Assembly: GCF_044324875.1 (NCBI RefSeq)
Contig: NZ_CP172185.1
Strand: one strand, 5' to 3'
DNA length: 64,000 nt
Source: Escherichia coli
GTDB taxonomy: Bacteria; Pseudomonadota; Gammaproteobacteria; Enterobacterales; Enterobacteriaceae
Below are positions 6,697-10,290 of this stretch, one piece after another. Every line of letters starts with the position of its first letter. Positions within the stretch are counted from its first letter, which is position 1. The notes beneath the pieces were generated by a model, which was not told where the DNA came from, did no database searches, and worked only from the letters and a program-made list of their open reading frames with translations. The translations under genes were made by a program, and so were the position numbers.

Positions 6697-7005
6697 TGTT
6701 TCACCGTTATATAACGGTATCATTCAGTTTTTAAAAATGGCGACAGGTTAACCTGTCGCCATCCGGTCAGATGCTCACCAGACCGCGCCCCCCATCAGTC
6801 TCCATATCCTCCCCCTTGCCCTGCCGGATGATAGCGCCACGCGACATCACCAGGTAGTGGTCCGCCGTCATGTTCCGGTGAAATCGTCCTGACACGTTTC
6901 CGGGCTCGTTATCAGCGGTTTTTGCGAATGATCGCCGCCCTGCGATGGTTGATTTATTTTATTGCGCCCCGGCGTCTGCCTTGCCAGGTACCGGAGGCGG
7001 GCTCT

Positions 7006-7104
7006 GAAGTACTGAGTAGGGTGAGCGCGTCAGGCCACGAAGTACTGACACGGGAGTTTGTGGCAGGCAGTGAAGTCCTGACCAGGGTAAGGGAGGGGCT
7101 GACG
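7006..7104. repeat. Three tandem 33-bp units each beginning GAAGT(A/C)CTGA
   Basis: Units start at 7006, 7039 and 7072 (exact 33-bp period), conserved 10-bp head, variable body. Confidence 0.5.
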
Positions 7105-7319
7105 TGCATGCCCTGACTGTCAGCCAGGGCGCGTGGTGACTGACTTTCTCAATAACCCGCTGTCAGGCGCTCAACGCCCGACAGCAGGCCATGGCCCGGT
7201 GTGCAAAGACCTGACGGCAGGCCTTGTGTCACCCGGATAAGGTAAATCCCTCAAGAGGCAGCAACTCAGCCAGTCGGTCCTCAGGCCACTCCGGCAGGCG
7301 CGTCAGTACGTCCGTCAGC

Positions 7320-7488
7320 CAGGCATGTTGCAAAATCGCATCGTGTTCGATCGCCGATTCGCATCGTACTCGATCGCTGATTCGCATTGTCCGATCATTG
7401 ATTCGCATCCTGCAGTCACTCCTGGAATTAACTTTTCTGCATAGTCTCTACTGCTGAATTTTCTTCTCAGTAGAGGTCTTGATGGCTG
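7320..7488 (+). mobile_element. IS21-family left-end stub (multiple TTCGCAT...GATCG terminal repeats), truncated by the IS66-family element
   Basis: Repeat series and ...CCGATCATTGATTCGCATCCTGCAGTCACTCCTGGAATTAAC closely parallel the left end of the IS21-family element at 48620-48780. Confidence 0.45.
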
Positions 7489-7517
7489 TAAGCGTCAACG
7501 GAGCACCGTATTGACGC

Positions 7518-9131
7518 TTATTTATTGGTGAGTACTACGTTCCATGGCAGGAGTTCGTCAACTCGGTTGGAAGGCCATTCCGGCAGTACGCTCAGGATAT
7601 GGCGCAGATACGCTTCCGGATCGATACCGTTCAGACGGCAGGTGCCGATCAGCCCGTACAACAGTGCTCCACGCTCGCTGCCGTGATCGCTGCCAAAGAA
7701 CATAAAGTTTTTCTTTCCGAGACAGACTGCACGAAGCGCTCTTTCCGCAGCATTATTATCCGCCTCCGCCAGACCGTCATCACTGTAATAACAGAGGGCA
7801 TCCCACTGATTCAGTACATAGCTGAACGCTTCGCCCAGTCTGGATTTTTTCGACAGCGTACCATTCTTCTCCACCATCCATTCATGCAGCGACGTCAGTA
7901 ACACTTTGCTTCGCTGCTGCCTGACGGCAAGACGCTCTGACTCCGGTAATCCCCGTATTTCATCCTCGATGGCGTACAGTTCACTGATTCGCTTCAGGGC
8001 TTCTTCTGCCGTCGCACTTTTGCTGCTGATGTATACATCGTGGATTTTTCGCCGGGCATGGGCCCAGCACGCAACTTCTGTCAGTGCACCACCTTCACGT
8101 TCTGCACTGAACAACCTGTCGTAACCTGTGAACGCATCCGCCTGCAGGATACCCCGGAAGGGGCGGAGGTGTTGCTCCGGGTGTTTCCCCTGCCGGTTCG
8201 GCGAGTACGCGAACCAGACCGCTGGAGGAGATGACGAACCCACATTGCGATCATCCCGGACATACGTCCAGATACGCCCTGTTTTCGCCTTTTTCTGACC
8301 CGGTGCCAGTACCTTTACCGGTGTGTCATCAGTGTGAACCTTGCGGGTGTTCATTACATAACGGTACAGGGCATCATTCACCGGTGTCATTAACTGGCAG
8401 CACGCGTCAACCCAGTTGGAGAGTAAGGCCCGGCTCAGTTCGACACCCTGGCGGGCAAAGATTTCACTCTGACGATACAGTGGCAGGTGTTCGCAGTATT
8501 TTCCCGTTAACACGCGGGCAAGTAACCCCGGGCCCGCGATACCACGCTCTATCGGACGGGATGGTGCCGGTGCTTCAACGATACAGTCACATTTTGTACA
8601 GGCTTTTTTTACCCGTTCTGTGCGGATCACTTTCAGGGCGCTGCTCACCAGTTCCAGTTGTTCTGCACTGACTTCCCCCAGATAATCCAGCTCACCGCCA
8701 CACTCCGGGCAACAGCTTTCTTCAGGCTCCAGGCGGTTTATTTCGCGGGGCAGATGCTCCGGTAACGGACGACGATGGCGTGACTGTCGCAACTGGCGGG
8801 GAACCTGCCGGTCATCCTCTCGCCCACTGTAACGATCGCTGTCCTGTTCGCGTTGCTTCAGCAGGGCCTCAGCCTGTTCAACTTCACGACGCAGTTTTTC
8901 AGAACGGGTACCGAACAGCATCCGGCGCAGTTTTTCTATCTGAGCCCGCAGATGTTCTATTTCCCGTTCATCTTCTTCGATCTTTTCTTCGGCACGTGCC
9001 AGCGCAGAACGCAGGAAGGCCTCCGTCTCTTCAACCAGACTCAGTTGTTGGTCTTTCTGACGGAGGGCTTCAGCCTGCTCAGAGAGCAACCTTTCCAGCT
9101 CTGCGATGCGAATGAGGTATTTCTGACTCAT
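7518..9131 (-). CDS. IS66-family transposase TnpC
   Basis: 537-aa ORF with N-terminal coiled coil, CxxC..CxxC zinc motif (CCPECGGE...CTKCDC) and IS66 catalytic region. Confidence 0.85.
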   Translation of the reverse strand: MSQKYLIRIAELERLLSEQAEALRQKDQQLSLVEETEAFLRSALARAEEKIEEDEREIEHLRAQIEKLRRMLFGTRSEKLRREVEQAEALLKQREQDSDRYSGREDDRQVPRQLRQSRHRRPLPEHLPREINRLEPEESCCPECGGELDYLGEVSAEQLELVSSALKVIRTERVKKACTKCDCIVEAPAPSRPIERGIAGPGLLARVLTGKYCEHLPLYRQSEIFARQGVELSRALLSNWVDACCQLMTPVNDALYRYVMNTRKVHTDDTPVKVLAPGQKKAKTGRIWTYVRDDRNVGSSSPPAVWFAYSPNRQGKHPEQHLRPFRGILQADAFTGYDRLFSAEREGGALTEVACWAHARRKIHDVYISSKSATAEEALKRISELYAIEDEIRGLPESERLAVRQQRSKVLLTSLHEWMVEKNGTLSKKSRLGEAFSYVLNQWDALCYYSDDGLAEADNNAAERALRAVCLGKKNFMFFGSDHGSERGALLYGLIGTCRLNGIDPEAYLRHILSVLPEWPSNRVDELLPWNVVLTNK

Positions 9132-9161
9132 GACCGTTTTTATAATGCGGTCAGGCGTTTT

Positions 9162-9512
9162 TTACAACATTGTCAGTGAGTTAAGGCGGGATGTTTTTGG
9201 CTGACGCCAGTCCAGCTTATCGAGGAGCATTACCAGTTGCGAACGGGTAATGGATACCTTGCCGTCACGTACCGCAGGCCAGATAAACTGGCCTTCCTCC
9301 AGGCGTTTGGTGAACAGGCACAGACCATCAGCATCAGCCCAAAGAATTTTAACGGTGTCACCCCGTCGGCCACGGAAGATAAACAGGTGGCCGGAGAAGG
9401 GATTATCATTCAGCACATGTTGTACCTGTTCTCCCAGTCCGTTGAAGGATTTACGCATATCGGTAACGCCGGCAACGAGCCAGATACGGGTACCTGATGG
9501 GAGTGAAATCAT
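9162..9512 (-). CDS. IS66-family TnpB
   Basis: 116-aa ORF MISLPSGTRIWLVAGVTDMRKSFNGL... Confidence 0.85.
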   Translation of the reverse strand: MISLPSGTRIWLVAGVTDMRKSFNGLGEQVQHVLNDNPFSGHLFIFRGRRGDTVKILWADADGLCLFTKRLEEGQFIWPAVRDGKVSITRSQLVMLLDKLDWRQPKTSRLNSLTML

Positions 9513-9934
9513 CTTCCCCTCCCGCTCAGTTCGCGGATCAACACCGTGAGCAGCTCTGGCGATGGATTTTCCAGCGTCATGTTACCGTGATGGAACTCCA
9601 CCTTGCAGGAACTGGCACTGACTCTGGTCTGAGTGGAAGTGGATAAAGACGGCGCAATGGCCGCCACAGGTTCTTTCTGCTCATCCGGCGTTATTTCTAC
9701 AGGTAATAATTCAACGCCAGTGTCAGAAGAGGTCGTTACCGGAAGACGCCGCGAAACACGCCCTTCGTTCTGCCAGAGCCTGAGCCATTTGAAAATAACA
9801 TTATCATTGACGCCATTTTCACGTGCAATCTGTGCAACACAAGCTCCAGGTTGTGATGCCAGTTCAACCATACGAAGTTTGAATTCATTCGAATAGTTTT
9901 TACGAGGTTCTTTTCGCCAGTCCTGTAATTCCAT
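9509..9934 (-). CDS. IS66-family TnpA
   Basis: 141-aa ORF with helix-turn-helix region (NYSNEFKLRMVELASQPGACVAQIARENGV). Confidence 0.8.
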   Translation of the reverse strand: MELQDWRKEPRKNYSNEFKLRMVELASQPGACVAQIARENGVNDNVIFKWLRLWQNEGRVSRRLPVTTSSDTGVELLPVEITPDEQKEPVAAIAPSLSTSTQTRVSASSCKVEFHHGNMTLENPSPELLTVLIRELSGRGR

Positions 9935-10014
9935 ACTTAGATGTCCGTCTATATCAGATGGGCGTCTAAGTTACCAATTTTCGTCTGATGGCTACATACG
10001 GCGGTCAGTTTACG

Positions 10015-10290
10015 CTTACCATTGAGGCAATTGAAAAACCACTTTCTTCCCTGCCTTACTCACTTTCCCGTCACATCCTGGAACATCTGCGTAAACTCAC
10101 CAGTCACGAACCCGTGATTGGCATTATGGGGAAAAGCGGGGCCGGTAAATCCTCACTCTGTAATGCACTGTTTCAGGGGGAGGTCACCCCGGTCAGTGAT
10201 GTTCACGCCGGCACCCGGGAAGTGCGGCGCTTCCGTCTGAGTGGCCACGGTCACAGCATGATTATCACTGACCTGCCCGGGGTGGGCGAG
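10015..10290 (+). pseudogene. GTP-binding protein fragment (YeeP/YfjP/YkfA-like prophage GTPase), truncated at both ends by IS elements
   Basis: ORF 9988..10293 carries a P-loop (GKSGAGKSSLCNALF) and DLPGVGE; the ATG at 9988 lies inside the IS66 terminal repeat; 3' end cut by IS629 at 10291. Confidence 0.65.

Follow-up and report, generated by a model that had tools for sequence, protein, structure and literature searches.

The locus analysed here lies within a 64-kb stretch of Escherichia coli DNA (hereafter the window), in which the neighbours of an array of 33-bp repeats are an MFS gene, a fragment of an ABC-transporter gene and three insertion sequence (IS) remnants. A perfect 13+13-bp palindrome (ATGGCGACAGGTT/AACCTGTCGCCAT) follows the MFS gene at 6737-6762; its sub-threshold Rfam matches to the terminator part of CsrC fall on both strands, and it is thus most simply explained as the terminator of the MFS gene. 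The ABC-transporter remnant (6767-6865, minus strand), the C-terminal fragment of a gene coding for an ATP-binding protein as annotated by RefSeq in locus L001, where this region is identical, is cut by the end of an IS66-family element. It contains an open reading frame (ORF) whose C-terminus is ABC-like, and the 42-aa fragment gives no Pfam match.

The IS66-family sequence, which is ISSfl4-like, occupies positions 6867-7328 (minus strand) and represents the last 462 bp of the element. It comprises the right terminal inverted repeat (IR) GTCATGTTCCGGTGAAATCGTCCTGACACG (6867-6895), a 362-bp non-coding tail that carries the 33-bp units (6867-7228) and the 32 codons at the 3' end of tnpC (7229-7328, stop codon at 7229-7231), which is truncated at 7328 by the end of an IS21-family element; the left ~2.3 kb are absent. 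The tnpC fragment, annotated in RefSeq as a partial 'transposase domain-containing protein', matches the Pfam family DDE_Tnp_IS66_C (PF13817; 7232-7327, minus strand) with 35.2 bits, for a cut-off of 30. Two longer stubs (L002 and L006) are 96-98% identical to that of the window, and the one in L002 matches both PF03050 and PF13817. When the IR was aligned with the tips of 17 related ends, the window tip GTCATGTTCCGGTGAA fell in with their GTAAT or GTAAC tips. A single substitution at position 3, the C at 6869, separates the GTCATG of the window, L001 and L006 from the GTAATG of E. coli LH50-c (L029:3543).

A database search of this segment, which the initial annotation had proposed, was carried out on complete E. 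coli genomes. The 821-bp arrangement was identical in eight of them, and many weaker matches (75-78%), annotated as IS66 family transposase or tnpC, were obtained for 6865-7331. Positions 6870-7331 correspond to positions 2308-2768 of a complete element in L003, on the minus strand, with 76% identity over 469 aligned bases. The window-type element itself was not recovered as a complete copy from E. coli genomes, from plasmids or from the 11 genome-contig loci. Judged by its sequence, the stub is a remnant of the IS66 family, having both the C-terminal domain of TnpC and an IR of the type that starts with GTAA; of the tnpA-tnpB-tnpC gene set only the 32 tnpC codons are left, and with its genes and left end lost the stub does not count as a functional member. 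Its 76% DNA identity to the L003 element places it as a different IS species within the same ISSfl4-like clade, and the annotation of this region can be corrected to the extent that 6867-7228, left unannotated by RefSeq, is by the same alignments IS66-family sequence. The 33-mers, which had initially been described as unexplained by any recognised element, are accordingly located inside an IS66-family right end. In E. coli Br_112_kylling (L002:4990-5020), a window-type stub that is 96.5% identical, save that its last 5 bases differ, adjoins the start of sitB and not the ABC-transporter remnant, so the stub occurs in two flanking contexts.

The IS21-family stub begins at 7329 with TGCAAAATCGCATCG and extends to 7487 (plus strand, tip TGCAAAATCG), with three 22-23-bp repeats at 7336-7409, and is cut before the annotated start of istA. 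The initial annotation had correctly recognised here the stub of a further IS21-family element, which an IS66-family one interrupts and which resembles the left end of the element at 48.6 kb: the segment is 77.5% identical to that left end (and 76%, inverted, to the right end of the same element), and in E. coli LH50-c, in which ISEc23 is absent, an identical IS21-type sequence continues into an intact istA. The initial annotation had further described a 170-bp segment following the 33-mers. The segment is real (7329-7487, 159 bp), but the intervening sequence (7105-7328) is of the IS66 family and includes the 3' end of tnpC. Ends related to the stub are found just upstream of istA in an ISSso4-like element. 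The three repeats, the element at 48.6 kb and the LH50-c copy together show the IS21-family arrangement of multiple short terminal repeats followed by ist genes, of which none is left at this site in the window. The complete IS21-family element (48623-51270; istA, istB and five or six ~22-bp left-end repeats) adjoins a tyrosine-integrase-like gene at 51289-52497.

From 7488 to 10019 (minus strand) lies a complete ISEc23, another IS66-family element with tnpA, tnpB and tnpC (RefSeq annotation in L001, and ORFs), which truncates the IS21-family stub. A GTPase-like ORF at 9988 begins inside its end. The flanks of ISEc23, TGATGGCT (7480-7487) and CATTGAGG (10020-10027), show no target-site duplication; they therefore derive from different places, via deletion or recombination between copies, and a later rearrangement took the rest of the IS21-family element. 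Comparison among strains points to a history in which the IS66-family element would have inserted beside the ABC-transporter gene fragment, its body would then have been lost to the IS21-family insertion at 7328, and the latter element would in turn have been cut by ISEc23 at 7488.

Structure of the repeat array

The three repeats that had been reported to start at 7006, 7039 and 7072 have their heads at exactly these positions (GAAGTACTGA at 7006-7015, GAAGTACTGA at 7039-7048 and GAAGTCCTGA at 7072-7081), and the 33-bp spacing is exact. Their description as exact-period tandem repeats holds for the spacing of the heads and not for the units as such, since whole 33-mers share only 21, 18 and 17 of 33 positions. 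Moreover, Tandem Repeats Finder did not report the 33-bp units in the window, where it reported only the 23-bp IS21-type repeats. The array is therefore better regarded as a series of spaced conserved cores than as a true tandem repeat. In a scan of all 10-mers across the whole 64-kb window for three occurrences with at most one mismatch and an equal spacing of 11-60 bp, the 33-bp heads were the sole triple recovered, and when the window was simulated 200 times under a first-order Markov model no such triple appeared; the repeats are not due to chance.

Two weaker copies flank the heads, CAGGTACCGG at 6985 (21 bp before the first) and CATGCCCTGA at 7107 (35 bp after the third), so that the array as a whole spans 6985-7116, and a Serratia relative carries CAGGTACTGA at the positions matching both. 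The best-conserved piece is CGTCAGG-N4-GAAGTACTGA (7028-7048). Elsewhere in the window the motif is represented only by scattered single-mismatch matches. The clearest compositional signal of the tail is a cluster of ten CTGAC/GTCAG pentamers between 6889 and 7215 (starting at 6889, 7029, 7045, 7078, 7099, 7113, 7119, 7140, 7162 and 7211), for which about one would be expected; ten or more were obtained in none of 1000 dinucleotide shuffles. The 33-bp heads are the regular part of this cluster. Enrichment is similar in other long tails (359-375 bp) and weaker or not significant in the short tails of L018 and L021. A second pair of sequences spaced by 33 bp, CCCGACAGCAGGCCATG (7177) and CCTGACGGCAGGCCTTG (7210), is 82% identical and lies within the tail (7177-7226) out of register with the three heads.

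Distribution of the array among complete relatives

The complete element of L003 (5003-7772, 2770 bp) interrupts a phage terminase gene and carries tnpA, tnpB and tnpC, with Pfam matches to TnpB_IS66 and to a full TnpC with four IS66 domains. Its inverted repeats start with GTAATATTCCGG and GTAATGTTCCGG and pair over 33 nt with 85% complementarity, and 8-bp target duplications bound both this element (GATATAAC) and that of L009 (CAGAAAAC). A copy on Shigella pCP301, 93% identical to L003, is annotated as 'ISSfl4 ORF3', and we therefore term the clade ISSfl4-like.

Complete elements carry three copies of the motif with 33-bp spacing, all in the tail, and none in the body or at the left end. The latter measures 87 bp from the tip to tnpA, and in L003, L009 and L010 its non-coding region contains no match with up to two mismatches. 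Heads resembling GAAGTACTGA are present in all 13 aligned tails, from Escherichia, Shigella and Serratia; they are nearly invariant while the spacers vary, and the 33-bp spacing is kept in every tail except that of L013, which has a 7-bp insertion between units 1 and 2. The Serratia copy in L010 has three perfect heads and two outer CAGGTACTGA sites, one lying 21 bp ahead of the heads and the other 35 bp beyond them. When one genome per species was scanned, Cedecea neteri and Edaphovirga cremea proved to carry further related elements (TnpC 62-64% identical), with a tail of 225 bp and two units 34 bp apart, in which the invariant TCAGnACTTC-N4-CCTGACG corresponds to the other strand of window positions 7028-7048. 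The long tail is limited to the clade in which TnpC is at least ~58-64% identical to that of L003. Most IS66-family members, including elements with a TnpC 37-45% identical as well as ISAba46, ISEc8 and ISEc23, have a tail of 30-72 bp and no array. On chromosomes as well as on plasmids, every array found lies within an IS66-family tail, and from these alignments we take it to be a feature of the element and not an accident of the window copy.

The tails of this clade also contain other insertions. On plasmid CP098976.1 (L007:3190-3660), related IS66-family ends are nested at one and the same octamer, GTGATACC, directly after the tnpC stop codon. The junctions read tgaGTGATACC/GTAATATTCCGG and CGGCAGGTATCAC/GTATCGTTCCGG (the slash marks the boundary), one insertion being inverted and the other direct, and for this reason they look like two independent events at a single hot spot. 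An inversion of the tail was considered for this locus and rejected, as the junctions show nested insertions with a duplicated GTGATACC. A further insertion of a related end into a tail, the third, is seen on plasmid NZ_CP124742.1 (L011:2993-3160), where an IS66-clade right end starting with GTATTGTTCCGG lies directly after the first head of another tail (TCTGAAGAACTGAG/GT). The flanks of 17 ends revealed no clear target-site consensus for the clade.

Sequence conservation and tests of coding and RNA function

Between L003 and the Serratia element of L010, the fraction of identical four-fold synonymous sites in tnpC is 0.41, which is close to saturation, and that of identical tail positions is 0.78. 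Likewise, for the window-type element and L010 the values are 0.41 at four-fold sites, 0.82 in the repeat block and 0.68 elsewhere in the tail. At the nucleotide level the tail, and the repeat block most of all, is thus conserved beyond the neutral expectation. For L003 and L004, identity in the tail (0.94) is far above that in tnpC (0.73), pointing to recombination in at least some lineages; the higher identity of the tail in such pairs could be due in part to recombination instead of constraint. Such mosaicism would suit a reading in which the region next to the IR was once duplicated in tandem and the repeats are what is left, without present function and maintained through recent common descent and recombination, and so would the likeness in the window between the inner segment of the IR, GTGAA(ATC)GTCCTGAC, and unit 3, GTGAAGTCCTGAC. 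In a local alignment of the inner 28 nt of the IR with the tail, the score of the window was reached in 7 of 500 shuffles, but L003, L010, L017, L018 and L021 gave no significant score, and in view of these five relatives no weight is placed on deriving the repeats from the inner part of the IR. Heads and spacing have been kept between elements near synonymous saturation (0.41) and across the genera Escherichia, Shigella, Serratia, Cedecea and Edaphovirga, with variation confined to the spacers, and we deem an origin as inert duplication residue quite unlikely.

The initial annotation had also considered that the repeats might form part of a decayed gene. On the plus strand, the ORF at 6922-7116 does read through the array as SEVLSRVSASGHEVLTREFVAGSEVLTRV, so that the repeats could be taken for part of a small coding or decayed gene with an 11-residue repeat of the form E-V-L-T/S-R, and some database records annotate a 'hypothetical protein' over parts of related tails. 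Analysis of the six frames does not bear this out, yielding no conserved ORF over the repeats, no codon periodicity and no match to a Pfam family. The frame that reads E-V-L-T-R is open over 31 to 269 codons depending on the copy, with differing ends and no shared start, and three frames are open at once. Variable columns are distributed 14/15/12 by codon phase, without excess at the third position, codon position 2 of the first head can be T, G or A, and a 1-nt indel separates copies within the frame. The coding explanation was accordingly rejected and appears to us very improbable.

A further possibility is transcription of the tail into a functional RNA. The tail might act as a structured 3' untranslated region that stabilises or terminates the tnpC mRNA, or as a non-coding RNA working with the element's proteins, with the UCAGUACUUC repeats as protein- or RNA-recognition motifs. 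Some 300 nt of non-coding sequence, conserved above synonymous sites, do follow tnpC directly, several hairpins are kept, and the tnpC-strand RNA of the window folds better than its shuffles (z = -2.98, with none of 200 as good). This last result is what the numerous inverted CTGAC/GTCAG pentamers would lead one to expect, and covariation supports a structured RNA on neither strand: the RNAalifold covariation term is +1.41 kcal/mol on the tnpC strand and -1.37 kcal/mol on the other, the paired columns are mostly invariant, and the unit-2 hairpin is reduced to 4 bp, with no compensation, in the Cedecea and Edaphovirga tails (L018 and L021). A search of the tail against Rfam at E ≤ 1 returned only a chance L17-leader match (E = 0.48), and neither a promoter-like site nor an intrinsic terminator on the tnpC strand was found in 6700-7500. 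Since the tail is moreover missing from most of the IS66 family, we consider an RNA function unlikely.

A GATC site (6930-6933) and a terminator-like hairpin on the plus strand (6931-6946) with a T-run, GGTTGATTTATTTTATT, lie in a region (6930-6962) that is kept in most related tails, and the hairpin would stop transcription that enters the element through its right end.

Putative function of the array

Short invariant cores, free spacers, intervals of 21, 33, 33 and 35 bp that are close to whole helical turns, and confinement to one end together give the array the look of a protein-binding one, and protein binding is, on sequence grounds, its most likely function. The suggestion of protein-binding iterons made in the initial annotation is thus probably right as regards protein binding, although not as regards replicon iterons, there being no rep gene nearby and the array being found only with IS66 tails. 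Our preferred explanation, which we hold to be probable, is that the 33-bp units are the conserved core of the tail and, in intact relatives, a cis-acting protein-binding array for the right end. The most likely candidate for the bound protein would be the element's own TnpC or TnpA, which would sit on approximately the same face of the DNA at intervals of some three helical turns, and the array would thereby mark or assemble the right end specifically. Two observations weaken the analogy with the transposase sites of Mu, Tn7 and IS21: the repeats are present at one end only, and their likeness to the inner IR, to be expected of additional transposase sites, is no more than marginal in the window and not seen in five relatives. 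In addition, because most IS66-family members lack the array, it cannot be essential to the chemistry of the family.

The repeats might instead bind a host factor, or insulate tnpC from outside transcription. In favour of this, the terminator-like hairpin with its T-run (plus strand, 6931-6946) faces inward from the IR and is kept along with the GATC at 6930-6933, and the spacings of 21, 33 and 35 bp approach whole helical turns, as is also the case for response-regulator site arrays. By inspection, however, the motif could not be matched to the LexA, IHF, Fur or NarL consensus sequences, and elsewhere in the window it does not go beyond those scattered single-mismatch matches, for which reasons a host-factor or insulator role strikes us as improbable.

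Returning to binding by the element's own proteins, it is possible, although we put this forward only tentatively and would sooner doubt it than assume it, that the whole ~360-bp tail might be an undescribed cis-acting module of the ISSfl4-like clade, with at least five CTGAC-core sites, spaced by about three helical turns, that would load the element's own proteins at the right end only. Were this right-end-only loading to be true, the two ends would have different roles, and the array would offer the first handle on end recognition by any IS66-family element. The tail may also attract incoming copies, which have landed twice at the octamer GTGATACC at the tail start and once inside the first repeat.

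In the window itself, the array is a functionless relic, given that there is no transposase and no left end and that the IR tip is mutated; what remains is ordinary transposon debris beside a truncated transporter gene, in which the repeats do nothing. The interest of the array lies in its being a concrete candidate binding site for end recognition in one clade of the family, nearly invariant and conserved above synonymous sites across five enterobacterial genera. In a literature search that left aside ISfinder and two key papers on the family, we found no papers on subterminal sites or repeats of IS66-family elements; the array may already have been noted in those sources, and is otherwise apparently uncharacterised. 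The transposition mechanism of the IS66 family is itself still regarded as insufficiently characterised (PMC12898284).

Comparison with known systems

Like plasmid iterons, the array consists of direct, evenly spaced short motifs in non-coding DNA. It differs from them in having no rep gene nearby and no origin context, and replicon iterons were rejected as an explanation because the array travels only with IS66-family tails.

The subterminal sites of Mu, Tn7 and IS21 provide a second parallel, for they too present short conserved cores in direct order within one end, separated by variable spacers; an IS21-family example of multiple subterminal repeats lies next door, at 7336-7409. In Mu, Tn7 and the IS21 family, each end has its transposase sites, and these bear an evident likeness to the terminal repeat. 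The array departs from these systems in being restricted to the right end and in showing a likeness to the IR that is not significant in most relatives.

Typical IS66-family members (ISEc23, ISEc8, ISAba46 and a Salmonella element with a TnpC 45% identical) agree with the clade in their tnpA-tnpB-tnpC organisation, in an IR of the GTAA type and in 8-bp target duplications, and the same terminal inverted repeat and direct repeat features have been described for another member of the family (PMC12898284). They differ from the clade in that the tnpC stop codon lies 30-72 bp from the IR tip and in having no array. The closest counterparts are the ISSfl4-like elements represented by L003: the window copy, at 76% DNA identity, has lost its left end, tnpA and tnpB and all but the 3' end of tnpC, but it shares with them an IR of the type GTAATnTTCCGG, the C-terminus of TnpC, the tail of ~360 bp and the triple GAAGTACTGA at 33-bp spacing.
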